Part shown: positions 12,764-63,264 of the stretch, piece by piece
How positions within the stretch are numbered: position 1 is the stretch's first letter
How the letters are laid out: each line of letters begins with the position of its first letter
Source of the DNA: an uncultured Bacteroidales bacterium
GTDB lineage: Bacteria > Bacteroidota > Bacteroidia > Bacteroidales > UBA932
Assembly: GCA_945948555.1 (NCBI GenBank)
Contig: CAMFBM010000003.1
Span: forward strand, 7,839-71,838
Direction of reading: 5' to 3'
DNA length: 64,000 bases
Notes under the pieces: generated by a model
The model's database searches: none
Told to the model about the DNA's origin: nothing
Seen by the model: the letters and a program-made list of their open reading frames with translations, nothing else
Made by a program: the position numbers and the translations under genes

Positions 12764-12791
12764 TGAATATACCGTAATAATATATAAAAAT

Positions 12792-13976: not shown

Positions 13977-13994
13977 CTTCTGAAGGGCAGTCCT

Positions 13995-14834: not shown

Positions 14835-14967
14835 AAGTCGTATTTCATTAAGGGTTACAAACATACATATAAAATTGTGACATTGTGTCAGGAATCTGCA
14901 AAAAATCCATTAATATGAAATCAAAATTTTCTAAATTTGCGTGATTTAACATAAACTGACTATATCT

Positions 14968-47707: not shown

Positions 47708-49978
47708 TCAGATACTTTTGTTTCTGGGGGGGGTAAAACGGATTTCTACCCTCGCAGGCATACCAGGAAAATAGTTCACATCTATTCTTCCGCCCACGGA
47801 TGCAATCATCTTTTCGTATTGATTCGTATCCGAATATGCATTGTCTATGAAGATGATTGTCTCCCCGGCTGAATTTTCTGTCCATCCGATTGTGATTCTG
47901 CCATTGCACTTCTTCAGCGCATCCGATATGAGCGAGTTCATAACTTGGTAAATAACAGGACGGTTAGATTCGATTTCGCACGTTTCTGGACCGGGACAGA
48001 AGACAATCCTGGACTCTCCGTCTGAATGAACGGAACTGTTGATATATATGTCCTCCATTATTTCTCCCACACGTACATTCGAAATGATGACTTTTTCGAA
48101 ATCCCTTGTCTGGAGCGTGTTTCCCATCACGGAATCGAGAAGTTTCAGAAGGCTGTCGTTGGCTCTCTTTACCTTGTCCTCGCAATCTGTCTTTCTTTCA
48201 TCCGAAAGGTCGTTGAAATGGTCTGCAAGCAGGCTGGAATAGAATACGATTTCATTGACAGGTTTGCGGAATTCATCGTTCATAGATGCAAGGAAACTCT
48301 CTTTTTCAGCCACTTCTTCGCTCCTGCGGTAAGCCTGCTTCAATTCTTCGTTACGTTTGTAGGCTTCATCGTTGAAATAGAAGAATCCGGCTTTCACTTC
48401 GTCCTTGTCCTTTGTTCCGGCTACGCTTATGATGTGAACGGAGACGGCCCTTACCTGTCCGCCTGAAGGCATACGCAGCAGTAACTCAATATCTTTTTCC
48501 CCCTCGAAAAAGTCACTTAGCATCATCTGTCTGAAGGTGTCTCTTTTAGGCTCGAGAATGTATTCCAGAATTTTGTCAATGGATATATCCTCCTCGGGTA
48601 ATCCGAAATCTTTGTAGAATGAAGGAGAAAAACGGAAAATCCTGTCTTTAAACATACGCCAGGTATAGGAATTGAGTTCGGACAGGATATACTCCACCTG
48701 AATATTCGATTGTTCCGCCTCCTTCGCCTTTTCGAACAGCTGTTTACGCTGTTTCTTCTGTCTTATGGCCATAAAGCTCGGAGTAATGACCGCCAAAGCC
48801 ACGAAACCTGCAGCAAGCAGAGCAATCAGGACATCAAGTAGAATGTTTATATCCTTGGACCTTTGCAGGAGGGGTAGATTTACAAACTTTACACCTTTGG
48901 GAAATTCGTCGGCATACGGGTGTAGGTTTTTCACAAGCCTCCAGTCCAGCCAATAGTCTTTCTTCAGTTTGCCCCAGGGAATCTGCTTCGGCGCAGTGCC
49001 GTTCAGAAGTTTGTCAACAATGGGGTGAAGCTGTTCCCACATTGAAGGGAAGGGAGTGAAATAACCTCCCATACAGGAGTTCAGGGCATTTATCAGTGGC
49101 AGGTCGAAATGGTCCGGAACCATAGTGAAATACGGCCCTATGTTGTAGGACATCGCAGTGTTGGCGTATTCGTCGCTTTTGAGGTGAAGGAATGAAGTTT
49201 CCTGCTGCTGGGTGAAGAAGATCCATTCCATCTTGAAGGACCCCGGAACTCCGGGATGCCGGTCATTCTTTTCCGGCCACATTGTGCTCACTGGAAAGAG
49301 GGTTATTTTAGAATCCCTGAACTGCTTCAGGTGTATGCGGTCTTCCTGTTCCAGATGGAGGTTGGGCCTGTAATGCTCGGGGTCGTTTCCTATATCTGCC
49401 AATATGTGTTCGCGGATATGGTCGTCTATATAGGTGCTGTCCATAACGGTGACTACATAGTTGGGAAAGCCTAAATCTTTGATGAAATCCAGATTCTTTT
49501 TTACTGCCGGCTCTGCCTCCATCACCACCACATTGGACATTGCTGGCAGCCTGTTTTTCCAGGTCGGATGCACCTGGCCTGCACAGAGTATTGGCGTGTC
49601 TTTCAGCAGAGGGTCGTCCACCTGCGCCACCGCGCCAGCAACATCGTCACCATATACTATTAGAAGGTCAGGTGTCCCCACCTCGCTCTTTACACTGTTG
49701 AGTGCACGACGGAGCAAATTCCTTGCATCGTGTTCGTATTCCTTTTTCTCCCAATATTTTCCGATATAGTCCGAGACATAGAAAAAATGTAGATTGTAGC
49801 GGGAGGTGTCGGCATATTCCTCTTTTGCCGACTTAATGAAACTGTCCCATATCTGGGTGTTTCGGCTGAAAGGGCAGAGTACGGCAATTTCCTTCTTCTC
49901 CGCCGCTCCGTCGCAGGAAACAAGCAGCAAAGCCGCAAGCACCGTGAGAAGTGCAGTTATGATATTCCCCCGTTTCAT
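47708..49978 (-). CDS. Sensor histidine-kinase paralogue, predicted catalytically inactive
   Basis: Lipobox LLVSC, periplasmic domain, TM and PAS-like segment; H-box reads SMNDEFRKP; degenerate HATPase domain. Confidence 0.8.
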   Translation of the reverse strand: MKRGNIITALLTVLAALLLVSCDGAAEKKEIAVLCPFSRNTQIWDSFIKSAKEEYADTSRYNLHFFYVSDYIGKYWEKKEYEHDARNLLRRALNSVKSEVGTPDLLIVYGDDVAGAVAQVDDPLLKDTPILCAGQVHPTWKNRLPAMSNVVVMEAEPAVKKNLDFIKDLGFPNYVVTVMDSTYIDDHIREHILADIGNDPEHYRPNLHLEQEDRIHLKQFRDSKITLFPVSTMWPEKNDRHPGVPGSFKMEWIFFTQQQETSFLHLKSDEYANTAMSYNIGPYFTMVPDHFDLPLINALNSCMGGYFTPFPSMWEQLHPIVDKLLNGTAPKQIPWGKLKKDYWLDWRLVKNLHPYADEFPKGVKFVNLPLLQRSKDINILLDVLIALLAAGFVALAVITPSFMAIRQKKQRKQLFEKAKEAEQSNIQVEYILSELNSYTWRMFKDRIFRFSPSFYKDFGLPEEDISIDKILEYILEPKRDTFRQMMLSDFFEGEKDIELLLRMPSGGQVRAVSVHIISVAGTKDKDEVKAGFFYFNDEAYKRNEELKQAYRRSEEVAEKESFLASMNDEFRKPVNEIVFYSSLLADHFNDLSDERKTDCEDKVKRANDSLLKLLDSVMGNTLQTRDFEKVIISNVRVGEIMEDIYINSSVHSDGESRIVFCPGPETCEIESNRPVIYQVMNSLISDALKKCNGRITIGWTENSAGETIIFIDNAYSDTNQYEKMIASVGGRIDVNYFPGMPARVEIRFTPPRNKSI

Positions 49979-52365
49979 TGTCCAAACAATATTTTGAATG
50001 TTGAGCCCTCTCCCAGTTCGCTTTCCAGCGAAATCTGTCCGCCCATTTGTTCCACAAAAGCCTTGCAGATATACAGTCCAAGTCCGCAGCCCGGGGTAAA
50101 ACTGTCCACCTTGAAGAAGCGGTCAAAGATAAACTCTTGATTTTCAGGGACTATGCCTATACCCTTGTCTGAAACTCTGATTTCTGTTTTCCCGTCTTCA
50201 GTGATATTTATGCTCACTCTTATTTCCGTCTCCGGTTCGGAGAACATTATGGCGTTGAACAAAAGATTGTCAAGAATATTGGTCAGCATAATCCTGTCAG
50301 CCTTGACAATCACCGCATCCTTGCAGAAATCTGTAATTATTTCCCTTTCAGGCCTCTTTTCCCCAATTATCTCCCTCACCAGTCCGCACAGTTCGATGTC
50401 TTCATAATACGGGTTTGCCGGATTTCTGCTTATGCGTGCTGCAGTAAGTATATTCCTTATGGTGTGCTGGAGCTGGGTGGAATTGCAGTGTATGGCTGAT
50501 GAATATTCTTCAAGTTCCATTTCCTCCATAGGCATTCCTGGCATTGCCAGAAGCTGGGCATATCCCACAATCGAGTTAAGCGGAGTGCGAATCGCATGGT
50601 TCATCGAGGCGATGAAGCCCTCCCTTGTGCGTGCAGCCGTAATGATGCGGTTGGTTTCGGCCTCTATGGCTTCCAACTGCTTCTGGTTGTCAATGTTTAC
50701 CATTACCCCGCTTCTAAGGACTCCGTCATCTTCCGGAGACTTTCCCACGTTCATACGCAGTTCATACCAGTGGTACGGCTTGCCGTCAATGGAAATGTAA
50801 GCCTGGAGGGTATAATTCCCGGGTTCTTCAATTCTGAAGAAATTGATTATTCTTTCTTTGAAGAAGTCCGAAGCCTCCATACGTTCCAGACTTTCAATGT
50901 TTTTGTTGTCAAGTTTCCAGGTACTGAAATCAGCCTTGCTCATCAGTTCTTTCAGCAACTTGTTGTTGCAAATGGTCTCATTTGCATAGTCCCTCAGACG
51001 GCGCTCATTCCTGCGGGCCTTCCGGGAATAGTAGCTTATGATAATTATGCTCCCCACCAGAGCTGCGACAAACAGCAGGATACTGGTCATCAAATATGTC
51101 CAGTACAATGCGGGATTCCTGTCTTTGAGCCCGGCATTGGCTATGTTGATGTTTGAGGGTATACTGTTTACGTCCAGCCCTTTGTCCCGCAGAACATCCC
51201 AATTCAGATTATAGGTCGGCGTGTGCTGGAGACCGCGCAGTTCCTCAGCCTTTTCCCCTTTGAGCAGTCTCACTCCCGCGCTCACAGCATCCCTGATCTG
51301 GCTTTCGGCTGTCGGGAAATAGCCTCCTATACACTTGTCGTTCACGAGATAATCTTCTGCGACCATAGTGAAGTACGGTAGGAAACTCGGCCCTTCCACA
51401 AGTCCTCGCGTCTTGTTGTCGTGTTTTGTCTGGATGAAAAAATAGGAAGATCTTTGCAGATAGAAAGCCCAAGTGGTGGGCATCTGATAGATATTCATGC
51501 AGTTCCACGAAGGATCCAACACACTGCGGCAGGAGAAGACAATTTTGTGCTCGTCTTTGGCTATGGCACGAACTCTGTCTTCATTGACTCTCGGATGCAG
51601 ATTGTTGTAGAACTTTGTCTTGTCGAGACTATCCATCTGTTCATTGAGCAGGTTGAACAAAATCTTGTCATTCCAGAGGTGGGGCACATCGAGAAGGGTG
51701 ATAAGGCGGTTGGGATATACGGGCAGGAAGTCTTCGTTGCGGATTTTTTCAATTATCCGGGAAGAGAACTCATTGGCGAACACCAGGTTAGGTTCCAAGT
51801 TCACTCTGTCCATTATGTTCACCATATCGTTCCATCTTCCGCCTTCGTAATTTATCTTCAATAATTCATACTGATAGGGCAGGAATTCCTCACTCCTTAT
51901 GCCGAAACAAATCACGGGGATTGATGCTGTGACCGGATTGGTGTCAGTAATCAGCAACCAGCGGTTTGCATTGCCATAGGAGAGTATGAGGTCTGGCATA
52001 CGACCCTCAGCCCGTAGCTTGAGTATGAGTTCGTTGAGCATAGGCCGCTCGAGGGATTCATATCTTTCGGTAATGTGGGCGAAATGCACCTGAACATCCC
52101 CGATGATGCCCTGTCTTGCAAGTTCCTCCCTTGCCAGACTTGTCCATTTCCTGTATGAGGGGTCGCTTTCATCCGTGGGCCAGTAAAGCAGGACGTTGGC
52201 CTCAATTTTTTCCGCTTCAGGCCTGCACGCACAAAAAAACATCACATAGCAGAGCAGAGTGATGAGTTTTCCTGATATGGCGTATTTTTTTTGTCTTTGA
52301 CAAGGCGGGTCAGGTTTTCTGCAATCCAACTTAAAGTCTGCAAATGGAGACCGTAATTCAAACAC
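49975..52365 (-). CDS. Sensor histidine kinase (GTG start)
   Basis: H-box SMNHAIRTPLNSI, N-box NLLFNAIMF, G1 SDKGIGI, F-box IFDRFFK and G2 GCGLGLYI; periplasmic domain and TM. Confidence 0.92.
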   Translation of the reverse strand: MFELRSPFADFKLDCRKPDPPCQRQKKYAISGKLITLLCYVMFFCACRPEAEKIEANVLLYWPTDESDPSYRKWTSLAREELARQGIIGDVQVHFAHITERYESLERPMLNELILKLRAEGRMPDLILSYGNANRWLLITDTNPVTASIPVICFGIRSEEFLPYQYELLKINYEGGRWNDMVNIMDRVNLEPNLVFANEFSSRIIEKIRNEDFLPVYPNRLITLLDVPHLWNDKILFNLLNEQMDSLDKTKFYNNLHPRVNEDRVRAIAKDEHKIVFSCRSVLDPSWNCMNIYQMPTTWAFYLQRSSYFFIQTKHDNKTRGLVEGPSFLPYFTMVAEDYLVNDKCIGGYFPTAESQIRDAVSAGVRLLKGEKAEELRGLQHTPTYNLNWDVLRDKGLDVNSIPSNINIANAGLKDRNPALYWTYLMTSILLFVAALVGSIIIISYYSRKARRNERRLRDYANETICNNKLLKELMSKADFSTWKLDNKNIESLERMEASDFFKERIINFFRIEEPGNYTLQAYISIDGKPYHWYELRMNVGKSPEDDGVLRSGVMVNIDNQKQLEAIEAETNRIITAARTREGFIASMNHAIRTPLNSIVGYAQLLAMPGMPMEEMELEEYSSAIHCNSTQLQHTIRNILTAARISRNPANPYYEDIELCGLVREIIGEKRPEREIITDFCKDAVIVKADRIMLTNILDNLLFNAIMFSEPETEIRVSINITEDGKTEIRVSDKGIGIVPENQEFIFDRFFKVDSFTPGCGLGLYICKAFVEQMGGQISLESELGEGSTFKILFGQ

Positions 52366-52379
52366 AAAGAATAACCGCG

Positions 52380-52410
52380 CAAAGTTAGAAATAAATGATG
52401 TAATATCAAA
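52380..52410 (-). promoter_or_regulatory. Promoter of the kinase operon
   Basis: Minus strand TTTG-N19-TAACTTTG, ending 14 nt before GTG 52365. Confidence 0.75.
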
Positions 52411-52443
52411 TTTTAAGTAAACTATGGAAAATCAAAGGAAAAA

Positions 52444-52475
52444 TTTGTCCTTTTGTCTAAACTGTATTAACTTTG
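52444..52475 (+). promoter_or_regulatory. Promoter of the receiver/EPS operon
   Basis: TTTG-N20-TAACTTTG. Confidence 0.8.
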
Positions 52476-52496
52476 CCGTTCTTACATCTAACTTAA

Positions 52497-52958
52497 TTGA
52501 TGATGGATATAGGACCTCTGAACAATATTGATTGCAGCAACTTGTCATTGATGATTGTGGATGACATTCCAATCAATACAAAACTTCTTGGAAAACTGCT
52601 TGAACCTGCTGGTTTCAAGACTTTACTTCAATACAACAACAGTCAATTGGCCTTGGACAGCGTGAAGACTGTCAATCCGGATATTATCCTGCTGGATATT
52701 ATGATGCCTGGAGTGGACGGTTTCGCATTCCTCTCTTCTGTACGCGAAGACAAGAGCCTGGACCACGTAAGGGTGGTGCTTGTTTCGGCAGTAAGCGAGT
52801 CTGAAGAAGTCCACAGGGCACTCTCGATGGGTGCAAACGACTATTTGACTAAACCTATCAATGCGAAAAGACTATATTCTTGTGTGGCGCAGCAGATACA
52901 GCAAATTCTGGGGGGGGGATTAAATGACGAGACGGAAAAAGAAGGTATTGATTGCTGA
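52497..52958 (+). CDS. Stand-alone response regulator (receiver domain only)
   Basis: IVDD, DIILLDIMMP, VSA and YLTKP motifs; no output domain. Confidence 0.92.
   Translation: MMMDIGPLNNIDCSNLSLMIVDDIPINTKLLGKLLEPAGFKTLLQYNNSQLALDSVKTVNPDIILLDIMMPGVDGFAFLSSVREDKSLDHVRVVLVSAVSESEEVHRALSMGANDYLTKPINAKRLYSCVAQQIQQILGGGLNDETEKEGIDC
52910..52918 (+). repeat. G9 homopolymer at the junction of the two receiver genes
   Basis: ATTCT-GGGGGGGGG-ATTAAATG. Confidence 0.9.
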
Positions 52959-53304
52959 AAACAAGCAGTTCCTCGTTGATGTGATAAGAGAATCCTTAAG
53001 ATCTGAGGGATATGACTGTGTTTGTGTCAATACCGAGAACGAACTTTACGGGGTTATAGACAATGTTGATGCTGCCGTGGTGGGATTGGATATCTGCCCG
53101 GGAGATCAGCCCCGCAGGGTGGATATGATAGCGGAAATCAAACACGAGTTCGAGTTGCCTTTGCTGGCACTTACAAGCCTGCAGTATTCATCAGTCCGGA
53201 TAGAATTGCTGAAGAAAGGAGCCGATGATGTCCTTACAAAGCCTTTCAATCCTGACGAACTGGCAGTGAGACTGGGCAAGATAATGGAAAGAAATGCCAG
53301 ATGA
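52924..53304 (+). CDS. Atypical stand-alone receiver domain
   Basis: VLIAEN, DAAVVGLDI, LTS and VLTKPFNPDEL; the acidic pocket is degenerate. Confidence 0.85.
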   Translation: MTRRKKKVLIAENKQFLVDVIRESLRSEGYDCVCVNTENELYGVIDNVDAAVVGLDICPGDQPRRVDMIAEIKHEFELPLLALTSLQYSSVRIELLKKGADDVLTKPFNPDELAVRLGKIMERNAR

Positions 53305-54011
53305 AACGTTTTTTGAACATCCTGTTTGCGATTGTGGCTATAGTGCTTCTATCTCCTTTGATGATAGCTATCTCGCTTGTACTGATGATTCAGGGAGGTG
53401 AGTCGCCCATATATTCATCGATAAGGGTGGGGAAGAACTGGAAAAAGTTCCGTATTTACAAGTTCAGGACTATGAACAAGGGGGCCGACAAGAAGCTTAC
53501 AGACCTTCAGTCTATGAATTCTTATATCAGGGTGGAAGGGAATGAAATAGAGATAACGAGGACCTTCAGCAGTGATGCTTATCTGTATGCTGACAACTAC
53601 AAGGTGCGTGAGGACATCTATCTTTCGGAACGGCACAAATGCTTCGAGGGCTGTTTCATAAAGATTGAGAACGATCCGAGAATTACTGAACTTGGCCGTT
53701 TCCTCAGGAAGACAAGTCTGGATGAACTGCCTCAGTTGTTCAATATTCTCAAGGGAGATATGGCTCTGGTAGGGAACAGACCTCTTTCAATTGAGGAGGC
53801 GGAACTTCTGACAAACAATACTGACGGACTCAGGTTTAAGGCTTCGGCCGGTCTGACCGGACTCTGGCAGACGGATGACCGCAAGGACGATATGCCACCT
53901 TCTGAGCGCATCAGACTGGACAATCTGTATGCAGAAAAGGAATCCTTGAGTTTTGACTTTAAACTTATTTTGGTATCTTTCAAGAAAGTTATTACAGGAC
54001 ATAATGAATAG
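53301..54011 (+). CDS. Priming sugar transferase (undecaprenyl-P glycosyl-1-P transferase family)
   Basis: RVGKNWKKFRIYKFRTM, DPRITELGRFLRKTSLDELPQLFNILKGDMALVGNRP and GLTGLWQ. Confidence 0.93.
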   Translation: MKRFLNILFAIVAIVLLSPLMIAISLVLMIQGGESPIYSSIRVGKNWKKFRIYKFRTMNKGADKKLTDLQSMNSYIRVEGNEIEITRTFSSDAYLYADNYKVREDIYLSERHKCFEGCFIKIENDPRITELGRFLRKTSLDELPQLFNILKGDMALVGNRPLSIEEAELLTNNTDGLRFKASAGLTGLWQTDDRKDDMPPSERIRLDNLYAEKESLSFDFKLILVSFKKVITGHNE

Positions 54012-54819
54012 CCGCATATTGGCAACCACATTGGCTCTCATCCTGAGTACAGTCGCAGGTGCTCAGGGGTTGCCTACTAAACAGATACGTGTTGACAGCA
54101 CTCTAATGATACTCAATGCGATGACGGTGGAGGACTATATGAATATGGAAATCCCTCCTCTGGACACATTGTATTACAATGCCTTCAGTATGTCCAATGC
54201 TGTGAAGTACTATGAGGAGGAGGTAAATTACTACACCTGTGCGGTGAGGAACGAGCAGATGAAGCCGCTCGAATGGTTGAGGTTAGTCACTTCTGCAAGT
54301 TACGGCAATACTGACATCGTCGGCATCCTCCGCAATGAGGCCAGTTATCCCATCTGGATGGAGAGCAGCACCAGGCAGAGGAATTTCTTCTTCAATGTCG
54401 GACTTACGGTGAACATACCTTTCTCGGACATATTCAATACTCACAACAGGGTCAGGCAGGCCAAGGCCAAGGTCCGTCAGACCCAGTATCGCAGGCAGTC
54501 CGAGTTGGACAATATAAAACAGCAGATTATTGGTCTTTACTGCGACATCATTTCCGGCATCAATTCCCTTCAGAGTGCAGCGGAAAGGCTGGTAGTGGCA
54601 AAGGCACAATATGATTTTGCCGAGAAGGATTTCGCAAACAACAAGATTACTGCCGAGGTTCTTTACAGATGCAAGTCGTATGAGACTGCCGCCACTCAAG
54701 ACTATGAGAGACTGAAACGTGACATAAATCAGGCCCTGCTCAGCCTCGAAGTACTTTCCTGCACCAAAATCATCAAGCCTGTTTCGGATGTTACACCTGG
54801 ACCTCTCACTGAACAATAA
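54004..54819 (+). CDS. Short TolC/OEP-family outer-membrane protein
   Basis: Signal peptide and one helix-beta-beta-helix OEP-like repeat (FNVGLTVNIPF...ARAQYDFAEKDF-like heptads). Confidence 0.65.
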   Translation: MNSRILATTLALILSTVAGAQGLPTKQIRVDSTLMILNAMTVEDYMNMEIPPLDTLYYNAFSMSNAVKYYEEEVNYYTCAVRNEQMKPLEWLRLVTSASYGNTDIVGILRNEASYPIWMESSTRQRNFFFNVGLTVNIPFSDIFNTHNRVRQAKAKVRQTQYRRQSELDNIKQQIIGLYCDIISGINSLQSAAERLVVAKAQYDFAEKDFANNKITAEVLYRCKSYETAATQDYERLKRDINQALLSLEVLSCTKIIKPVSDVTPGPLTEQ

Positions 54820-56954
54820 TGAAGACACTTCAATTCATAATCAGGATACTCTCAAAGAGGTGGTTGATGCTTTTGAGCCTGCCTCTGGTGGCAGCCTTGT
54901 TGGTGTTCGCCCTGATGAGCCGCAATCCCAAGATGTACAAGTCCAGCAGTACCATCTACACCGGTATAGTCTCCGGCTATGATGTTCTTGCGGCAGAGTC
55001 CACCACCAGGGATTGGATGAGCGTCAACAATGCAGTGGACAATCTGATAAGCGTCATAACTGCCGAATCCACGCTCAGCAATGTATCTATGCGTCTTCTG
55101 GCGCGTAATATTTCACATCTTGACTGTCCCGACGAAAGGGAGTATATTACTGAGAATACTGCTGCGGAGTTGCGTAATATGCTTTCTAATGATATCTTAG
55201 AATTGACAGTGCGTTGTGACGAGGAGGCGACCTACCGCAATTTTATTGAAGCTTATGAGGCGAGCAGGGACAACTGGTTCAAGCAGATGTTCCACTGGAA
55301 CCACCGTCACTACAGCTTCAAAGCCCTTTCCGGTATTGAGGTAAGCCGCGTGGGCAGTTCCGATATGATACGCCTGTCCTATACCTGCGATGACCAGTTT
55401 GTGGCCTATCACACTCTGAAAATACTTGAAAGCGAATTTGTAAAACAATATCTCTCAATACGCTACCAGCAGACTACCGATGTCGTCAATTATTTCCAGA
55501 GGGAACTCAAGGCCATTCAGGCAGACCTGACCAGGAAGGAGGACGAACTGACCAAATACAATGTGGACAACGGCATCATCAACTATCAGGAACAGACAAA
55601 AATGGTTGCCGAAAGGCAGAAGGACCTGGATGGTCTCATAGAACTTGTGATGAGGGAAAGGGACGGATCTGAGCAGAAAATCCGCATACTCGAAGAGAAA
55701 CTCGGCTATGTTACTGACCTGTACACCAACAATATATCCTTCCTGACTCAGTTGCACACCATAAACGGACTCTACACCCAGATGTCCACCGACACCACCT
55801 CCAATGCAGATTTGAATATCAGGCTTGCAGAAGAGACTGAAAAACTCAGGTCGATAGGCAACGACATAAGTGTGTCGCAGTACACCAAGGAGGGGCTCTC
55901 CAATGATTTGCTTGTCACGGAATGGATTAACGCAATTCTCACCAAGTCTAAGGCAGAAGCAGAATTGAGTATTCTTATCGCAAATAAAAAGGAAATGGAG
56001 AAAGATGTAAGACGTTTTTCGCCTGTGGGGTCTTCAATAAAGAGACAGGAAAGGGAAATAAATTTTTCCGAGCAGAACTATCTTTCAAATCTCCGTTCTC
56101 TCAATGAGGCGAAACTCCGGGAGAAGAATCTTCAGCTGACATCTGCGACTTTCAAGGTCCTCACTCCTCCTGCAGTGGCCCTCTATCCGGAAAAGACCAA
56201 AAACAAACTCTATTCACTGGTGGCATTCCTGTTTACCTTCATCCTCCTTTGCGGTTTAGTCTTACTCTCCGAGGAAATGAACCGCAAACCGTACGATTCC
56301 ACCTCTGCGAACAATCTCGTGAATCTGCCGGTTATCGGGGCCTATCCTCTGCTGAAGAAAAAGTCAAAATATTCCGATATTTATGCCAGCCTGGCGATGC
56401 GCAATCTGGGCAACACCATCACAAACTACTTCGACCGGGACCAGACTGTGAACATCATCAACGTTTTCAGCATAAACAAGGGTGAAGGCAAGAGTACAGT
56501 CTGCAGGGCTTTTAACGACTATTTCGAGAGCATTGAGACCAAGCCGGTAATCGTGGACTGGGAAAAGGACTTCGAAAGCAATTCCAAATACTATCTGCTT
56601 GCCAACTCCATCTATGACTTCGGTGTGAACGAAAACAATATGGCATCAATGCCGGAGGCAAATGTCATAATTGTGGAGTACCCGCCGCTCAAGGACGCTT
56701 CCTTTCCGACCAAGGTGCTGAATACCTCTGCAATCAATGTCCTGGTTGTGGATTCAGAAAGGGATTGGTCAGGAATGGCCAGTCTTACCATCAATGAACT
56801 GAAGCGTTTCAATAAGCATAACAATATTGCCATCATACTGAACAACAGTGATATAGACACAGTAGGTTCTTTCACCGGAATGCTCCCTCCTTTCAGATGG
56901 ACGCACAAGCTGAGATTCGCCGTTTGGAATCTCGGCACCGAGACCAAAGTATAG
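54819..56954 (+). CDS. Wzc/GumC-like polysaccharide co-polymerase
   Basis: Two TMs flanking a long coiled-coil periplasmic region; Walker-A-like FSINKGEGKST and Walker-B-like VIIVEYPP. Confidence 0.8.
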   Translation: MKTLQFIIRILSKRWLMLLSLPLVAALLVFALMSRNPKMYKSSSTIYTGIVSGYDVLAAESTTRDWMSVNNAVDNLISVITAESTLSNVSMRLLARNISHLDCPDEREYITENTAAELRNMLSNDILELTVRCDEEATYRNFIEAYEASRDNWFKQMFHWNHRHYSFKALSGIEVSRVGSSDMIRLSYTCDDQFVAYHTLKILESEFVKQYLSIRYQQTTDVVNYFQRELKAIQADLTRKEDELTKYNVDNGIINYQEQTKMVAERQKDLDGLIELVMRERDGSEQKIRILEEKLGYVTDLYTNNISFLTQLHTINGLYTQMSTDTTSNADLNIRLAEETEKLRSIGNDISVSQYTKEGLSNDLLVTEWINAILTKSKAEAELSILIANKKEMEKDVRRFSPVGSSIKRQEREINFSEQNYLSNLRSLNEAKLREKNLQLTSATFKVLTPPAVALYPEKTKNKLYSLVAFLFTFILLCGLVLLSEEMNRKPYDSTSANNLVNLPVIGAYPLLKKKSKYSDIYASLAMRNLGNTITNYFDRDQTVNIINVFSINKGEGKSTVCRAFNDYFESIETKPVIVDWEKDFESNSKYYLLANSIYDFGVNENNMASMPEANVIIVEYPPLKDASFPTKVLNTSAINVLVVDSERDWSGMASLTINELKRFNKHNNIAIILNNSDIDTVGSFTGMLPPFRWTHKLRFAVWNLGTETKV

Positions 56955-56957
56955 CCA

Positions 56958-58385
56958 ATGTCTGACAAGTGGAAAAATGCACTATTCTGGGCCGTCTCCC
57001 TCATACTTGTGGCAGGGACGGTTTTCTTAATTTCATCCGGAATGCTGCCTTTTGCCGCCGTCCTCTGCGTTGCTCCGCTTCTGGGGTTTACGATGGTTCG
57101 GGCCTTTGACAACCGCCTCCTGTCGCTGTCCTTCATTCTCATTGCAGATTTCTGCATACCGGTTCTCGAACACTATCTGGTGGGTATGTCTATGGGACTG
57201 CTGATGGATGCTATGATATGCTTCAACCTTGCCGCCATAGCCTGTTCTGCAATGAACGGGACAAGGAGTACGAATGTCATTACTTTGGACTTGTTCATCG
57301 CCATAGGTATATGGTTGATCTACTGCATTGTGGAACTGCTCAATCCGAATATGAGGAGCATCGGGGTTTGGCTTTCGGCAGTGCGAAGTATGGCCTTGTA
57401 CTTCTTTATGGTTGCAATAATAGTCGAATTGTCCGTGACTGATTTCAAGCAGGTGATGACAATTCTTGCAATCTGGTCGGTCTTCGTACTGATGGCCTTT
57501 GCCAAACTTATGTACCAGAAATTCATAGGCTGGACTCCGGGGGACAAGTTCTTCCTGAATGTGATGGACGGAAAACGCACACACATAATATATTACGGCA
57601 TACGCTATTTCTCAATCTTTTCGGATGCGGCGAATTTCGGCGGCTCTATGGGGATGTCAGTGGTGGTCTTTTCAATCGTGGGAATGCACTTGAAGAGCAT
57701 CAAGACCAAGCTCTACTATTTCGCTGTGGCTGCCTGTGCCTGCGTGGGTATGTTCCTTTCCGGGACTCGAAGTGCCTTGCCTGTACCGGTGGCCGGAATT
57801 ATGGCTTACCTTGTGCTTGTTAAGGATTTCAAGAAAATGGTGCCGATAGCCATTGTATGCGCCATTGCAGTAGGTATTCTTGCGTTCACTGACATAGGCC
57901 AGAGCAATACTGCCATAAGGAGAGCCCGTACGATTTTTCACAGGGAAGAAGACCTTTCTTACCAGGTAAGGAAGCAGAATCAGGAAGCACTCAGAGGCTA
58001 TATGAAGGAACTTCCGTTTGGTAACGGTTTGGGAATGAGCGCTGGCAGGGCGCAGCGTAACGGGGATTATTCGCCTCTGACCTACTATCCGACTGATTCC
58101 TGGATAGTGCAGCTATGGGTGGAAACTGGCATAGTGGGTCTGGTCATATATTTATGCGTAATGCTATACATCTTTGCCCGGGCGGCATATATCGTTTTTT
58201 TCAAAATCGGAAACAGAGACTTTGCCGGTATATGTGCGGGGCTGCTTGCGGGGGTTATGGGCCTCTTTGTGATGTCCACCAACAACGAGGTGTTTACTCA
58301 GTTCCCCAATAGCATACTTGTCTATATTTCCCTGACACTGGTATTCCTGGCTCCTCAACTTGAAAAAACAATTTCAGAAAAATGA
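56958..58385 (+). CDS. O-antigen ligase/Wzy-like polytopic membrane protein
   Basis: About 11-12 TMs; RYFSIFSDAANFG, LSGTRSA, PFGNGLG and DSWIVQLWVETGIVG. Confidence 0.85.
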   Translation: MSDKWKNALFWAVSLILVAGTVFLISSGMLPFAAVLCVAPLLGFTMVRAFDNRLLSLSFILIADFCIPVLEHYLVGMSMGLLMDAMICFNLAAIACSAMNGTRSTNVITLDLFIAIGIWLIYCIVELLNPNMRSIGVWLSAVRSMALYFFMVAIIVELSVTDFKQVMTILAIWSVFVLMAFAKLMYQKFIGWTPGDKFFLNVMDGKRTHIIYYGIRYFSIFSDAANFGGSMGMSVVVFSIVGMHLKSIKTKLYYFAVAACACVGMFLSGTRSALPVPVAGIMAYLVLVKDFKKMVPIAIVCAIAVGILAFTDIGQSNTAIRRARTIFHREEDLSYQVRKQNQEALRGYMKELPFGNGLGMSAGRAQRNGDYSPLTYYPTDSWIVQLWVETGIVGLVIYLCVMLYIFARAAYIVFFKIGNRDFAGICAGLLAGVMGLFVMSTNNEVFTQFPNSILVYISLTLVFLAPQLEKTISEK

Positions 58386-59278
58386 AAAAGAGAGTATCAT
58401 TCATAAGTGTCAATTACAACGGGATTGCCCAAACCTCCGATTTCATAAAGTCGGTACAGGCAAATGTACATTCCTGTTCTTATGAAATTATTATAGTGGA
58501 CAATGGTTCGCGCAATGATGAGGCTGCGGCACTAAAGCTCCTGTTCCCCTGCATCAAGACCATAAGGAGCGCAGAAAATCTGGGCTTTGCAGGCGGCAAC
58601 AACCTCGCTCTGGAGTACGCAGTGGGGGATTACCTCTTTTTCATAAACAACGACACAGAAATACTTGAGGATCATATTGACCTGCTGTGCAAGGCCCTGG
58701 AAGAACATCCGGATGCAGGAATGGTCTGTCCAAAAATCTGTTTTTTCTCAGACAAGTCAATAATTCAATATGCGGGTTACACCCCGATGAAAGGCTTCCG
58801 TATGAAGAATGAGATGCTGGGCTACGGGAAGAAGGACGACGGTTCATTTGACAGGGCAGGCTTCACCGCCTTCCCTCACGGGGCCGCAATGCTCATCAGA
58901 AGGGAAGCTATTACGCAAGTGGGGCCGATGCCGGAGGTGTATTTTCTTTATTATGAGGAACTTGACTGGGCGCTGATGTTCTCCCGCAAGGGATGGAAAA
59001 TCTATTTCGAGCCATCCTGCACCATCTACCACAAGGACAGTCTTACAACCCGCAGGCATGGTCCTGTCTTTACCTATTATATGACCCGTAGCAGGCTGAT
59101 TTTCGCCCAGCGCAATCTCGAAGGCTTCCAGAGAGTACTTTCAATACTGTTTACACGTTATGTGGCTTCTTCTAAGCATCTGATAGTCAATCTGATGCAG
59201 GGAAGACTGGACTCAGTCTCCGCGATTTTGCGCGCCAATAGGGATTTCATAAGAATGAAAAGGGAGGACAAAATATGA
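58382..59278 (+). CDS. Glycosyltransferase family 2
   Basis: FISVNYN, VDNGS, NLGFAGGNN, FINNDT, HGAAML and YYEELDW. Confidence 0.92.
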   Translation: MKKRVSFISVNYNGIAQTSDFIKSVQANVHSCSYEIIIVDNGSRNDEAAALKLLFPCIKTIRSAENLGFAGGNNLALEYAVGDYLFFINNDTEILEDHIDLLCKALEEHPDAGMVCPKICFFSDKSIIQYAGYTPMKGFRMKNEMLGYGKKDDGSFDRAGFTAFPHGAAMLIRREAITQVGPMPEVYFLYYEELDWALMFSRKGWKIYFEPSCTIYHKDSLTTRRHGPVFTYYMTRSRLIFAQRNLEGFQRVLSILFTRYVASSKHLIVNLMQGRLDSVSAILRANRDFIRMKREDKI

Positions 59279-60435
59279 TAACTCTCTGTGTGTATTTTCT
59301 TTTGCACTTTCTGTTGTGCCTGATTTTCGTGGTGCCGGCGCTGTACTATTTCGTATTTGCAGTGGCGGGAAAATCATTGTCTGCAGCAAAGAATAGCCCC
59401 TCCCGCCAAAGCCGTTTTTGCGTCCTCATCCCGGCATACAGGAGTGATTCCTACATTATGCCAACGGTACAGGCCGCTCTGAATCAGAAATATCCTTCAG
59501 ACAAGTTCCGTGTACTGGTGATTTCGGACGGTATGCAGAAGAGCAGTGTGGAAAATATACTCCACAGCGGAGCGGAAGTTCTCGAAGTGGCGTTTGCGAA
59601 CAGCACCAAGGCGGCATCTCTCGCGGCAGCTATGGATTATCTGGGTAGGGATGCCGGGGATTATGTCGTGATTCTGGATTCTGACAATATTGTGGAACCG
59701 GACTTTCTCTGCGAGATAAATGCAGTTCTTGACGGCAGGAGGATTGCAGTGCAGGGACACCGCTGCGCAAAGAACGCCGACACTCCGGTGGCTGTTGCAG
59801 ACGGTATTTTCGAGCAGGTGAACAATCTCGTTTTCAGGGCGGGGCATTGTGCTCTTGGACTCTCCTCAGCACTTATAGGCTCCGGTATGGCTTTCCCCTA
59901 CGACTGGTTTCGTGGGTGTGCAAGAGATTTCGAAACGGCAGGGGAGGACAAGGAAATGGAACTGAGGTTGCTGATGGACGGAATCTTTGTGGAATATGCC
60001 CCTCATATCCATATACTTGATGAAAAGACCAGAAGCATCACCAATCTGCAGAAGCAGAGACGTCGCTGGCTTCATTCACAATATGCGTTGATAGTCAATG
60101 CCATTGCCGAGTTCCCGTATGCAAAGTTTAAGGTCGGTTATGCTGACAAGCTTTTGCAGTGGCTCTTCATTCCCAGAATTCTGCTCATTACGGGACTTCC
60201 TCTGCTCGCCATCCTGTCCATTTTTACTTCAAGTATCTGGTGGTTGTACCTGCTTGCCACCATTATGCTTTTTGCAGCCATTTGCCTCGGCCTTCCTGCC
60301 GGAGTGAAAATCAAGGACCTCGCTCCGGTGCTTAATCAGGTTCCCGCAATGGCACTTGCAACTCTTAGAAATATTTTCGGCAAAAAAACTGCCAGTGACG
60401 AATTCATACATACGGACCATGAGAATAGCAATTGA
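59275..60435 (+). CDS. Membrane-anchored glycosyltransferase family 2 with QXXRW motif
   Basis: N- and C-terminal TMs; VLIPAY, ILDSDN, GEDKE and QRRRW. Confidence 0.9.
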   Translation: MITLCVYFLLHFLLCLIFVVPALYYFVFAVAGKSLSAAKNSPSRQSRFCVLIPAYRSDSYIMPTVQAALNQKYPSDKFRVLVISDGMQKSSVENILHSGAEVLEVAFANSTKAASLAAAMDYLGRDAGDYVVILDSDNIVEPDFLCEINAVLDGRRIAVQGHRCAKNADTPVAVADGIFEQVNNLVFRAGHCALGLSSALIGSGMAFPYDWFRGCARDFETAGEDKEMELRLLMDGIFVEYAPHIHILDEKTRSITNLQKQRRRWLHSQYALIVNAIAEFPYAKFKVGYADKLLQWLFIPRILLITGLPLLAILSIFTSSIWWLYLLATIMLFAAICLGLPAGVKIKDLAPVLNQVPAMALATLRNIFGKKTASDEFIHTDHENSN

Positions 60436-61510
60436 AGCACAGAGAATATTCAGACGCAATAAGCACGGAATGGATTTCGTAATCCTCGAAATCATCCGCT
60501 GCCTCCAGAAACTTGACCACGTAAATGAGTATTGGGTCTTTGTGGCTCCAGGTGAGGATGTCTGTCTGGAGCAGACTCCGAATTTCCATATCGTGGTGCT
60601 TGGGAGCGGTTTCTATCCGCTTTGGGAACAGGTCCTTCTGCCTGCTGTGGTACGGAGGGTAAAGGCTGATGTGCTGCATTGCACGAGCAACACAGCTCCT
60701 CTGTTTCCGGGAGTGCCTTTGGTTGTGACCTTGCACGATGTCATCTGTCTGGAGAAGGAGAACGGCAGCAGCAAGTCCCTCTATCAGAAGATGGGCAGGA
60801 TTTACAGCCGTTTCGTGGTGCCCAAAGTGATGAGGATTTGCCGCAAGGTGGTGACCGTGTCCCATTATGAGAAGGAGAGGATTCTGGAAAAACTGAATCT
60901 CCCGTCAGAAATGGTGAAGGTGGTGCACAATGGTTTTGGTGAAGAATTCAATATCCGTGCATCTTCATCATCAAGGGATTATATTCTCTTTTTGGGAGCG
61001 ACGGCCCCGAAAAAGAATACCCGGGGGACCTTGCAGGCTTATGGCCTCTACGTTGACAAGTCCCGTCGAAAGCTGCCCCTCAAAATTGCAGACCTGAGCC
61101 GGGAGCACGTGAAGGAATATCTTGCCGAAATCGGCAGACAGGATCTGAATGACCGGATTATCTGCACGGGATATGTGCCCCATTCAGAATTGCCTGCCCT
61201 CTATGGCGGAGCATCGGCATTCCTGTACACATCTTTCCGCGAGAGTTTCGGCATACCGCAGCTGGAAGCTATGGGATGCGGTACCCCCGTTGTGGTTTCC
61301 GACAAATCTGCCCTTCCGGAAGTGGCTGGACCCGGTGCGGTCTATGCAGACCCCTATGAGCCTGAATCAATTGCCTTGAAACTGCTGAAATTGGAGGAGG
61401 ACGAGTCTTTCAGGGCAGCTGCAGTGGAATATGGCCTGGAAAGGGTCAAGGAATTCTCCTGGGAAAAATCGGCCACACTTATGCTCTCAATCTATGAATC
61501 ATTCAAATAA
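60419..61510 (+). CDS. Glycosyltransferase family 4
   Basis: MRIAIEAQRIF, VVTLHDVI and RESFGIPQLEAMGCG. Confidence 0.93.
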   Translation: MRIAIEAQRIFRRNKHGMDFVILEIIRCLQKLDHVNEYWVFVAPGEDVCLEQTPNFHIVVLGSGFYPLWEQVLLPAVVRRVKADVLHCTSNTAPLFPGVPLVVTLHDVICLEKENGSSKSLYQKMGRIYSRFVVPKVMRICRKVVTVSHYEKERILEKLNLPSEMVKVVHNGFGEEFNIRASSSSRDYILFLGATAPKKNTRGTLQAYGLYVDKSRRKLPLKIADLSREHVKEYLAEIGRQDLNDRIICTGYVPHSELPALYGGASAFLYTSFRESFGIPQLEAMGCGTPVVVSDKSALPEVAGPGAVYADPYEPESIALKLLKLEEDESFRAAAVEYGLERVKEFSWEKSATLMLSIYESFK

Positions 61511-61537
61511 TCTGCGCATTACTCAAAATCAAATACT

Positions 61538-62155
61538 ATGTCGGACCTCAAGAATCTGAAATACACCCATCCCAGACTCAAGCAATTCATAGTCTGGTGT
61601 CTCTCATCTATGAAACATCCCCGTCCTCGCCTGTGGACACGGCTTTTCGTCAATCCATTTGTCCACAGCCGCGGCGCAGGAAGCAAGGTCTGTATGAAAG
61701 CTCGTCTGGACGTGTTCCCCTGGAGGAAATTCTCTCTCGGCAGGGGAGCTATAGTCGAGGATTATGCTGTTGTGAACAATGGTGCCGGGGACGTGATTAT
61801 CGGAGAGAAGTCGCGCATAGGCATAGGCAGCGTGGTGGTGGGACCTGTTGAAATCGGAGACCGCACCTCTCTTGGACCTCACGTGCACATTGCCGGTTTC
61901 AACCATACATTTGATGATGGGGACAGGGATTGGAACGAGCAGGGACTCACAATCAGGCCCATCAGAATAGGCAACGAATGTCTCATCGGAGCCAATTCCT
62001 GTATCTGTGGCGGGGTCAGCATAGGCGACAGGGTGCAGGTAGGGGCTGGAAGCGTAGTTACCAAGGACCTTCCTGATGCCTGCGTAGCTGTGGGCAATCC
62101 GGCAAGAGTTATCAAATTGTACAATCTTCAGACGAAAAGATGGGAAAGAGTATGA
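61538..62155 (+). CDS. Hexapeptide-repeat O-acetyltransferase
   Basis: Left-handed beta-helix repeats and IGDRVQVGAGSVVTKDLP...AVGNPARVI. Confidence 0.92.
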   Translation: MSDLKNLKYTHPRLKQFIVWCLSSMKHPRPRLWTRLFVNPFVHSRGAGSKVCMKARLDVFPWRKFSLGRGAIVEDYAVVNNGAGDVIIGEKSRIGIGSVVVGPVEIGDRTSLGPHVHIAGFNHTFDDGDRDWNEQGLTIRPIRIGNECLIGANSCICGGVSIGDRVQVGAGSVVTKDLPDACVAVGNPARVIKLYNLQTKRWERV

Positions 62156-63264
62156 AGGTGATGTTTCTGGTCTTCCACTCTCTTGCGGCCCACAGCGGCA
62201 TAAGCAAGAAAATACTTGCCCAGATTGAGGGCTTTAGGCAGAATGGAGCCGATGTCGCCTTTTGCCGTCTGGTCGTGGATGAGGATGGAATCAAGCGAAG
62301 GGTAGTGGACGACAAGACTATATGCAGTTTCGGAAGAGGATTATGGGCTAAGTTGAGAAAGCGTTTGGACTATTCGGACATAGTCCGGGCTGCAGTGGAA
62401 GGGGATTTTGACCTCGTTTATATCAGATATGACATCAATGCAGACCCTTTTACTGTCAGACTGATGAAACAACTGCACCGCAAGGGGATAAGGACTGCTG
62501 TGGAAATCCCCACCTGGCCTTATGATGGGGAATTCAAGGGACAAGGTTTAATGATGAACCTGCAGCTTGCCATCGACAAGCTTTTCCGCAGGCGCTTTTT
62601 TTCATACTGCGGCAATGTTGTGCTCTACAGCGGGCCTGATGTGCTCTTCGGCTGCCCTGTGGTCCGCATAAGCAATGGAGTGGATTTCGCAAAAGTACCT
62701 TTAAGTGCCCTTGAGCGACGTGATGCCCGAAAAGGATTCCTCAAGCTGCTTTCTGTAGCTAATATACACCTCTGGCACGGTCTGGACAGGCTAATAAGAG
62801 GAATGGCAGATTTTCCGGAATGTGAACTTCACATAGTTGGAGACGGAGTGCAGGAGATAATAGACAGTTACCGCAAAATGGCAGAGGATTTTGGAATTCA
62901 GGACAGAGTGAGAATACTCGGCCCTTTATATGGCGATGCACTTGACCGTGAATTTGAATGGGCGGACCTGGCAGTGGGCAGTCTCGGAAGGCACCGCAGC
63001 GGTATTTCCAGCATCAAGACGCTCAAGAACCGGGAATATGCAGCCCGGGGTCTGGCTTTCTTCTATTCGGAAGAGGATGAGGATTTCGACAATGCCCCTT
63101 ATGTGTTCAAGGTTCCTGCGGACGAATCTCCGATAGATGTAAAGGCGCTCTCCGAATTTCTGTCAGCCCTGGATATGTCCCCTGAGCAGATTAGAGGGTC
63201 GGTGCAGCACCTGAGCTGGACAGAACAGATGGGAAAGGTTATCAGAACGGTTTCCCGAGAATAA
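62152..63264 (+). CDS. Glycosyltransferase (GT4-like)
   Basis: GISKKILAQI, VEIPTWPY, SVANIHLWHGLDRL, LHIVGDG and LKNREYAARG. Confidence 0.85.
   Translation: MKVMFLVFHSLAAHSGISKKILAQIEGFRQNGADVAFCRLVVDEDGIKRRVVDDKTICSFGRGLWAKLRKRLDYSDIVRAAVEGDFDLVYIRYDINADPFTVRLMKQLHRKGIRTAVEIPTWPYDGEFKGQGLMMNLQLAIDKLFRRRFFSYCGNVVLYSGPDVLFGCPVVRISNGVDFAKVPLSALERRDARKGFLKLLSVANIHLWHGLDRLIRGMADFPECELHIVGDGVQEIIDSYRKMAEDFGIQDRVRILGPLYGDALDREFEWADLAVGSLGRHRSGISSIKTLKNREYAARGLAFFYSEEDEDFDNAPYVFKVPADESPIDVKALSEFLSALDMSPEQIRGSVQHLSWTEQMGKVIRTVSRE

Follow-up and report, generated by a model that had tools for sequence, protein, structure and literature searches.

A histidine kinase/pseudokinase pair linked to SusC/SusD genes and facing two stand-alone receivers at the head of an exopolysaccharide operon in Candidatus Cryptobacteroides

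The sensors of polysaccharide utilization loci (PULs) in Bacteroides, such as BT1754, include hybrid two-component systems (HTCS) with periplasmic sugar-binding domains. Cross-regulation of PULs and capsules has been described in Bacteroides (Martens et al. 2009, PMC2709373), the known link between a PUL and capsular polysaccharide (CPS) being an ECF sigma/anti-sigma pair. At the level of the enzyme, phosphorylated EpsW (EpsW~P) of Myxococcus xanthus binds and activates the phosphoglycosyl transferase (PGT) EpsZ (Schwabe et al., mBio 2025, PMC12802240), and the same paper notes receiver fusions in small monotopic PGTs (monoPGTs), citing a sequence-similarity-network study of monoPGTs. Kinase-like proteins with a regulatory role are represented by RetS, the partner of GacS in Pseudomonas aeruginosa (PMC8498467), and by DivL in the DivJ/PleC-DivK-DivL circuit of Caulobacter (PMC5361649). 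Here we analyze a stretch of 64,000 nucleotides (the window) from the genome of a Candidatus Cryptobacteroides, a gut member of the Bacteroidales (2.33 Mb, 93% complete), in which parts resembling each of these systems are found side by side. It contains what look like two divergent transcription units: one, reading leftward, codes for a sensor histidine kinase (HK), a catalytically degenerate paralogue of it (psiHK) and a SusC/SusD pair, and the other, reading rightward, codes for two stand-alone receivers (RR1 and RR2), a small PGT and further genes for exopolysaccharide (EPS) synthesis.

The live kinase HK and its dead paralogue psiHK

HK carries every feature expected of an active kinase. 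Pfam detects HisKA (2e-12, 47.4 bits) and HATPase_c (4e-24, 85.6 bits), the H-box reads FIASMNHAIRTPLN, and the H, N, G1, F and G2 boxes are all present in the alignment. A lipoprotein-like N terminus is followed by a domain resembling periplasmic-binding proteins (PBPs), a transmembrane (TM) segment, a PAS-like domain, a dimerization and histidine phosphotransfer (DHp) domain with its His and a complete catalytic and ATP-binding (CA) domain; HisKA and HATPase_c are present in each of the orthologues of HK, which come from 13 loci. The paralogy of psiHK is evident from 22% identity to HK across the sensor, PAS and DHp regions (E 1e-23). Its H-box (FLASMNDEFRKPVN) has Asp in place of the His (FLASMN-D-EFRKPVN versus FIASMN-H-AIRTPLN in HK), the Thr at His+4 is absent, the Asn of the N-box is Asp, and some 26 residues covering the F and G2 boxes, that is, the ATP lid, are deleted. 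A Pfam search of psiHK returned no HATPase_c match and a HisKA score of 25 bits, under the cut-off of 26.9. With the histidine kinase fold kept, the His and the ATP-binding elements absent and this state conserved in the orthologues, psiHK qualifies as a histidine pseudokinase. Phosphatase competence in HisKA kinases goes with an H-E/D-x-x-T/N motif, in which Thr or Asn stands at His+4. That position is T in HK and in the canonical outgroups described below; it is K, N, E, A or V across the psiHK clade, so that no conserved Thr or Asn is found there. Lacking the motifs for kinase, phosphotransfer and phosphatase activities, psiHK must therefore have a structural or allosteric role.

Searches of Pfam and of PDB sequences with the periplasmic domains of the sensors retrieved no match, and a fold search alone placed them. 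An AlphaFold2 (AF2) model of residues 1-400 of psiHK, built from a 38-sequence alignment, has a predicted local distance difference test (pLDDT) score of 91.4, and Foldseek comparison with the PDB identified a type I PBP fold, with 3lft as the top match (2e-07), followed by CD0873, LacI-family cores, ribose- and xylose-binding proteins and the amino-terminal domains of ionotropic glutamate receptors (iGluRs). HK and psiHK each carry a type I PBP domain, and because of it each sensor could read a periplasmic sugar or oligosaccharide. A Cys behind the N-terminal hydrophobic stretch (LLxLxSC) is conserved in both sensors and all of their orthologues, which suggests that the N termini are possibly lipid anchored, with the TM helix following the PBP domain. 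The model of residues 405-756 (pLDDT 89) consists of a juxtamembrane helix, a PAS-like domain, a two-helix DHp and a shortened, lid-less CA sandwich, and a profile of the psiHK clade over residues 546-750 matched HK853 (E 1e-16), RetS (6dk8, 1.6e-12) and DivL (4q20, 3.6e-11) in the PDB. Since the sensor, PAS, DHp and core CA folds are all kept and the gene is translationally coupled to that of HK, psiHK is most likely an obligate partner of the latter.

A search of 5.8 billion proteins, in which the named matches were from Candidatus Cryptobacteroides or Bacteroidales metagenome-assembled genomes (MAGs), delineated a psiHK clade of at least 44 protein clusters with 45-71% identity, none of which has a HATPase_c domain in its precomputed annotation. 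In the 29 clusters that were aligned, the position of the His is taken by D, E, A, N, V, S, P or T, and an identical lid deletion is found in all 29. We further sampled 401 species genomes of the window's genus. The psiHK clade is present in nine of them, the window's own included, the version in genome G335 being 96% identical to that of the window; the first 36 same-genus genomes sampled had neither the psiHK clade nor the EPS operon. Both the loss of the His and the lid deletion recur in every one of the 14 nonredundant loci of the clade that were examined at the DNA level (loci and genomes are cited below by our L and G numbers), and the psiHK reading frame (750 aa) is unbroken in all of them. 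Strain-private decay is ruled out by this clade-wide shared state. The next tandems out (L060 and L023-25; 35% identity in G063 and 26-30% in G022 and G024) are canonical in both members, which argues for a single catalytic loss at the base of the clade, with the gene being kept ever since.

The distribution of constraint along the two proteins was gauged by the mean pairwise identity of each domain among 12 loci. The periplasmic domain (0.58 in psiHK and 0.57 in HK) and the PAS-like domain (0.47 in both) are equally conserved in the two paralogues, with psiHK falling behind in the DHp (0.49 versus 0.64) and CA (0.40 versus 0.50) domains. The sensor region of psiHK is thus constrained as much as that of the live kinase, with the relaxation confined to the catalytic parts.

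The receivers, the priming enzyme and their linkage to the sensors

RR1 matches CheY at D12, D13, D57, T/S87 and K109 (in its VDD, LLD, VSA and TKP motifs). It has a conserved N-terminal extension (MDIGxLxxIDCS), is 67-100% identical across loci and shows zero nonsynonymous changes with respect to G335. RR2, by the same comparison, has E11-N12 in place of D12-D13 and a deletion of two residues behind the acceptor Asp, and it retains D57, T87 and K109. The loss of D57 that marks an aspartate-less receiver is found neither in the window nor in any of the seven psiHK-linked orthologues, and because T87 and K109 are also kept, RR2 is better described as an atypical receiver with a degenerate metal site than as an aspartate-less or dead one. 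The D13 position among these psiHK-linked orthologues reads N, N, N, D, S, K and D, the orthologue in L033 has the full E-D/D/T/K set, and in the more remote orthologues of L061 and L062 Asn takes the place of D57. A C-terminal face, GADDV(L/M)TKPFNP(D/E)EL, is nearly invariant among the orthologues.

A census of the genome recovered 11 receiver domains, seven in hybrid systems of ~1300 aa and two next to a kinase of their own; the two that remain, RR1 and RR2, are unpaired, and RR1 is the sole canonical one of the two. The same census found four nonhybrid kinases, of which only HK and a 791-aa kinase, described in the next section, are unpaired.

The PGT next to RR2 consists of a Bac_transf catalytic domain with an insertion, covering residues 2-231, and has no TM bundle or DUF domain; its match to TIGR03025 (1e-57) is below the family cut-off. 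Homologues with 50-56% identity (L061 and L062) head a like operon, with orthologues of RR1 and RR2, the PGT, an OEP-like protein, a protein resembling polysaccharide copolymerases (PCP-like) and Wzy, and no HK or psiHK was found near either. The head formed by RR1, RR2 and the PGT hence appears to be an older module that exists also without the sensors. The nearest homologues outside Cryptobacteroides (43-48% identity) are mostly 380-390-aa receiver-PGT fusions, in which the N-terminal receiver-fold domain is often degenerate, from Bacteroidales, Parabacteroides, Macellibacteroides, Chitinophagaceae and Flammeovirgaceae. Such an N-terminal domain occurs in 59 distinct sequences among the top 120 homologues of the PGT, and hhalign relates it to receivers with E values of 1e-15 to 1e-17. 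In Parabacteroides pacaensis, a canonical 120-aa receiver stands ahead of the fused PGT and faces an NtrC-type two-component pair. A physical tie to a receiver is thus the rule in this PGT subfamily. The idea that RR2 is itself a split-off fused domain was dropped: in pairwise BLASTP, RR2 had no significant match to the N-terminal domains of fused PGTs, and hhalign scored RR1 (E 2e-17) and RR2 (E 2e-15) about equally.

Gene order was compared across the 14 psiHK-clade loci. The HK-psiHK tandem is found in all 14, and RR1 is the divergent neighbor of HK in 10, down to 46% identity and across rearrangement of both flanks. RR2, the PGT and the EPS genes stand next to RR1 in eight (the window, L052, L026, L030, L033, L027, L032 and L057), and all four genes together with the EPS operon are likewise counted in 8/14, down to 46% psiHK identity. 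SusC/SusD are linked to the pair in 10/14, usually with a GH29 alpha-L-fucosidase. RR1 still adjoins HK in two loci that are devoid of the EPS operon (L028 and L053), and orthologues of RR1 (at least 67% identity) are present in seven of the eight other psiHK-clade genomes and in none of three canonical-tandem genomes. A first-pass annotation of this DNA, made by a model from the letters alone, had proposed that each pair has one canonical and one degenerate member and had suggested a check of their co-conservation. The degenerate kinase is indeed no peculiarity of one strain, and the four genes and the operon are kept together in more than half of the loci; the proposed symmetry is right for HK, psiHK and RR1 but overstated for RR2, which keeps its acceptor Asp and, in one orthologue, the full active-site set.

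Two further features of the relatives were observed. In several of them, a further canonical stand-alone receiver (RR3), paralogous to RR1, sits between psiHK and SusC; it is absent from the window (Table 1), and in some loci it has its own 634-aa kinase (at 12355-14259 in L028). Furthermore, G206 (contigs C1 and C22) and G124 (C45 and C152) have two HK-psiHK pairs each, which indicates that the pair was duplicated or acquired twice. One pair of G206 is adjoined by RR1, RR2 and the EPS operon and the other by none of these; in G124, the C45 pair has only RR1 beside it and the C152 pair neither receivers nor EPS genes.

Layout of the locus and its surroundings

The features of the locus are collected in Table 1. 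The open reading frames (ORFs) and Pfam domains agree with the first-pass description of two paralogous sensors reading leftward and two receivers reading rightward from back-to-back promoters, with the receivers running into the EPS genes by short overlaps (35 nt between RR1 and RR2 and ATGA between RR2 and the PGT). It had also stated that there is no DNA-binding output, and we detected no DNA-binding domain in the large ORFs between 42.6 kb and a point 10 kb beyond the end of the window. The notion of a closed four-protein module did not survive: the sensors apparently share a transcription unit with SusC/SusD, the RR1-RR2-PGT head exists without sensors, and a third kinase lies in the EPS locus.

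Table 1. Coordinates of the features discussed, in window positions except for RR3, which is given by locus
Feature	Position	Strand	Basis or remarks
GH29 alpha-L-fucosidase gene stub, 23 codons	42564-42635	-	signal peptide MRNKYFILALTVLLSC alone remains
SusD-like glycan-binding lipoprotein	42625-44694	-	Pfam SusD_RagB + SusD-like_3
SusC-like TonB-dependent transporter	44706-47666	-	Pfam Plug + TonB_dep_Rec_b-barrel
psiHK, pseudokinase paralogue of HK, 756 aa	47708-49978	-	ATGA overlap with HK at 49975-49978
HK, sensor histidine kinase, 796 aa	49975-52365	-	Pfam HisKA + HATPase_c; exact start codon uncertain
Divergent promoter region, 137 bp	52366-52502	both	motifs read by eye
RR1, canonical stand-alone receiver	52503-52958	+	Pfam Response_reg 2.7e-26, 92.4 bits
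RR2, stand-alone OmpR-type receiver, degenerate metal site	52924-53304	+	Pfam 6.5e-11
PGT, small monotopic phosphoglycosyl transferase (priming enzyme), 236 aa	53301-54011	+	Pfam Bac_transf 1.3e-53
Short OEP/TolC-like outer-membrane protein	53953-54819	+	Pfam OEP 5e-15
PCP-like protein, chain-length determinant relative, 711 aa	54819-56954	+	weak NCBIfam matches TIGR03007, TIGR03017
Wzy-type polymerase	56958-58385	+	Pfam Wzy_C 1.9e-13
Glycosyltransferases GT2, GT2, GT4, hexapeptide acyltransferase, GT1-like (five genes)	58382-63264	+	Pfam
Convergent arm, start	63242-64000	-	GT2, EEP-family protein, GT2, third kinase; extends beyond window end
RR3, third canonical stand-alone receiver (relatives)	L027 12292-12663; L033 12283-12657; L028 14243-14617; L053 7559-9874; L060 15614-16003		

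The start of RR1 is set at the ATG at 52503 on the basis of comparison with its orthologues. In the gap between RR1 and HK, TTTG and TAACTTTG are found with a spacing of 19-20 nt on both strands: on the plus strand at 52444-52447 (-33) and 52468-52475 (-7) and on the minus strand at 52410-52407 (-33) and 52387-52380 (-7), respectively. By motif match alone, we take this pair to be a putative promoter of the Bacteroidetes type, in line with the Bacteroides consensus.

On the EPS side, of the components of a Wzx/Wzy-dependent pathway, the operon provides a PGT and a Wzy polymerase. The match of the PCP-like protein to chain-length determinants is weak, as is the Wzz match of its orthologue in L061, and the Wzx flippase lies outside the window (L064:8011-9192; L064 is the continuation beyond the window end, G000:C3:70500-82000). 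No Wza/OPX export protein was found in the locus, its place being taken by the OEP-like protein, and such a short OEP/TolC-like protein (~270-288 aa) is kept in every related EPS locus seen. The third kinase (L064 3539-5914, minus strand, ~1.7 kb past the window end; 791 aa) has the architecture PAS_3+HisKA+HATPase_c and heads the GT2, EEP-family and GT2 genes of an arm that is apparently cotranscribed and converges on the EPS operon, with a DUF4114/DUF4842 protein and the Wzx flippase beyond it. Its core is 43% identical to that of the kinase partnered with RR3 in L053 and L028. DUF4114/DUF4842 proteins recur in EPS loci (L064 6053-7948, plus strand; L061 329-2668 and 3129-5153): L061 has two, interspersed with its orthologues of RR1 and RR2, and in the window's locus there is one beside Wzx.

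On the glycan-import side, psiHK and SusC are on the same strand with a gap of 41 bp, in which no terminator-like site was matched, and HK, psiHK, SusC and SusD look like one transcription unit for PUL-type glycan uptake and sensing. Of the components of a PUL, the adjacent SusC/SusD pair is present. No intact linked carbohydrate-active enzyme gene was found here, only the GH29 stub, and no HTCS, ECF/anti-sigma pair or SusR is encoded in the locus, the sensors having neither receiver nor helix-turn-helix (HTH) domains. An intact GH29 gene follows SusD in L026, L027, L028, L031, L052 and L053; the window retains its first 16 codons, and homology to the 96%-identical G335 ends at 42588. Beyond this breakpoint there is unrelated DNA with a convergent 639-aa ORF (40638-42557) that has no Pfam match. 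In G335 itself (L052, G335:C92), SusC is broken into three ORFs of 202, 478 and 263 aa (12282-15124), one of the lesions being a 118-bp deletion relative to 45394-45513 of the window; its sensors, receivers and EPS genes are intact. The canonical HK-HK tandems outside the psiHK clade occur with GH106 and SusC/D, with GH10, an acetyl-xylan esterase (AXE1), a GDSL esterase and a major facilitator superfamily (MFS) transporter, or with esterases and CBM48, and no receivers or EPS genes were found alongside them. These glycan-degradation contexts suggest a PUL ancestry for the sensor pair, and the locus as a whole is best explained by a back-to-back union of two older modules.

Proposed enzyme-level control of priming, rival explanations and known systems

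From the anatomy, folds, conservation, synteny and census described above, we infer a circuit, to which we assign a probability of roughly 0.5, in which glycan sensing by HK and psiHK is relayed through phosphorylated RR1 (RR1~P) to RR2 and the PGT and controls EPS priming at the level of the enzyme. The PBP domains of an HK:psiHK complex would read a periplasmic sugar or oligosaccharide, plausibly one brought in by SusC/SusD. Made in step with HK by virtue of translational coupling, psiHK might serve in this hetero-complex as a cosensor or as a brake; its profile similarity to RetS and that coupling would fit a DHp-mediated hetero-association that blocks autophosphorylation of HK, as in RetS/GacS. 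HK would phosphorylate RR1, and RR1~P would act on the RR2/PGT pair through protein contact, with RR2, poorly or non-phosphorylatable, substituting for the receiver-like domain that is fused to relatives of the PGT. The outcome would set the rate of the first committed step in the synthesis of the EPS repeat unit. Direct contact of a phosphorylated receiver with the PGT that would stimulate priming is a prediction for which the ATGA overlap of RR2 and the PGT and the fusions in the subfamily offer indirect support. A bolder formulation, which we advance tentatively and regard as rather doubtful, is that of a transcription-factor-free circuit tying glycan foraging to the synthesis of a surface polymer: the receptor for oligosaccharides imported by SusC/SusD would be a Venus-flytrap heteromer in which a live PBP kinase is joined to a dead one, asymmetric like the heterodimers of class C G protein-coupled receptors (GPCRs), and RR1~P would address a pseudo-receiver, RR2, docked on the PGT and thereby gate the initiation of EPS.

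Several observations weigh against the circuit proposed first. Each half of the locus occurs without the other, HK-psiHK without adjacent receivers in L031/L058, L056 and L059 and RR1-RR2-EPS without the sensor pair in L061 and L062, which makes the linkage frequent rather than obligate. The persistence of RR1 in L028 and L053, where there is no EPS operon, implies that the PGT is not its only target. RR1 or RR2 might in truth be served by the third kinase, an orphan that belongs to the same EPS locus. With GH29 deleted in the window and SusC split in G335, the PUL arm of this sublineage appears to be eroding, provided that neither lesion stems from misassembly. The mechanism of EpsW cannot be transferred unchanged to a PGT that is as small as this one and that, by analogy with PglC, is monomeric. 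Finally, the comparison of psiHK with G335 yields 15 synonymous and 34 nonsynonymous differences, an omega of ~0.6 on 49 differences that are too few to inform.

The alternative that survives best, which we nevertheless consider unlikely, is that the two arms are independent neighbors: HK and psiHK would serve SusC/SusD alone through an unlinked or other output, the third kinase would feed RR1 and RR2, and the adjacency, though frequent, would be functionally empty on a mobile accessory island. The separate occurrence of the two halves just noted fits this well, as do the ancestral canonical HK-HK tandems, which sit in glycan-degradation loci without receivers or EPS genes, and the 43% identity of the core of the third kinase to that of the kinase beside RR3, a paralogue of RR1. 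Against such independence, the genome census leaves HK no DNA-binding or other receiver but RR1 and RR2. The divergent order of RR1 and HK has moreover been kept in 10 of the 14 loci while both flanks were rearranged, RR1 adjoins HK even in loci devoid of the EPS operon, and its orthologues follow the psiHK clade among the genomes checked.

A different role for psiHK, distinctly improbable in our estimate, would be that of a DivL-like docking sensor for RR1~P, which relays the phosphorylation state across the membrane or to another protein instead of modulating HK. The psiHK profile matches DivL as well as it does RetS, the DHp fold is retained along with its Pro kink, RR1 is unusually conserved, as expected of a protein with several docking partners, and DivL itself sets the precedent. 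However, translational coupling and a periplasmic domain as conserved as that of HK argue that psiHK reads an external signal together with HK, and the DHp, its most relaxed region relative to HK, is the opposite of what a conserved receiver-docking surface would lead one to expect. The possibility that psiHK and RR2 are merely decaying genes, pseudogenes in progress without function, to which the lost catalytic residues and an omega of ~0.9 in the CA-like region of psiHK against G335 (on 13 differences only) might point, is effectively refuted by conservation: psiHK frames are intact across the 14 loci and at least 44 clusters at 45-96% identity, all of them have the lid deletion in common, psiHK equals the active kinase in the conservation of its sensor domain, and RR2 orthologues are intact in nine loci with their invariant C-terminal face.

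Regulation of polysaccharide priming by a stand-alone receiver has so far been demonstrated in Myxococcus alone, where the target is a large monoPGT. If the PGT is indeed controlled through RR1 and RR2, the locus, and with it the fused relatives across Bacteroidota, would carry this mode of regulation over to the small monoPGTs of gut Bacteroidales. The linkage to SusC/SusD suggests a route by which capsule or EPS production could be tied to imported glycans without a transcription factor. psiHK, for its part, is a natural, conserved histidine pseudokinase with a constrained ligand-binding domain and a fixed ratio to its active paralogue. The size and solubility of all the parts suit them to phosphotransfer, binding and ligand screens in vitro, which makes the idea testable despite the organism being uncultured. 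The combination is limited to a minority of Cryptobacteroides species, ~2% of those sampled.

When set against the described systems, the locus agrees in full with none of the specific families with which it was compared. The first-pass suggestion that EPS synthesis might be controlled posttranslationally is made plausible by EpsW/EpsZ and by the receiver-PGT fusions that are the nearest outside homologues; its remark that no such system had been described was too strong, as RetS/GacS, DivL/DivK and EpsW/EpsZ each cover one part. Like EpsW, the receivers here are single-domain proteins without a DNA-binding output that are tied to the priming PGT of an apparent Wzx/Wzy pathway, and EpsW controls EpsZ posttranslationally by direct contact. 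By the NF041866 model, RR1 is not an EpsW orthologue, its score of 62.6 bits being below the cut-off (200). The PGT of the window, small and reduced to the catalytic domain, is not of the type of EpsZ, a monoPGT that is large, dimeric and without the beta-hairpin; moreover, the locus has a second receiver, whose metal site is degenerate, and its input is a PBP-domain HK/pseudokinase pair rather than the Dif chemosensory kinase of Myxococcus. The receiver-monoPGT fusions belong to the same PGT subfamily and have an N-terminal receiver-fold domain that is often degenerate, but RR2 is a separate gene overlapping that of the PGT, and hhalign did not single it out over RR1 as the counterpart of that domain.

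On the sensor side, RetS is a kinase-like protein with a periplasmic sensor of the carbohydrate type that modulates a true kinase by contact, with exopolysaccharide among the outputs, and its structures are among the best PDB matches to the DHp-CA profile of psiHK. RetS, however, keeps the His and the ATP-binding elements, has receivers, is unlinked to GacS and acts via GacA and the Rsm small RNAs on gene expression, whereas psiHK is a true paralogue of HK, is coupled to it, lacks all of the catalytic motifs and has no transcription factor downstream. The Caulobacter circuit likewise combines a kinase, a single-domain receiver and a His-less pseudokinase without a DNA-binding response regulator at that level; DivL differs in being cytoplasmic and polar, in keeping its CA domain and in controlling CckA, and it has neither a periplasmic PBP sensor nor a link to EPS or glycan import. 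With the Bacteroides PUL sensors the locus shares a kinase, putatively sensing periplasmic sugars, that is encoded beside SusC/SusD and a probable link of glycan foraging with surface polysaccharide synthesis. HTCS fuse the kinase, the receiver and an AraC DNA-binding domain and act on transcription, in contrast to the classical HK seen here, which is paired with a pseudokinase and whose output would go to stand-alone receivers only. Each element thus has a known counterpart; their combination, as far as the literature was searched, is new: a translationally coupled live/dead PBP-kinase pair goes with SusC/SusD and faces two receivers without output domains and a small monoPGT.

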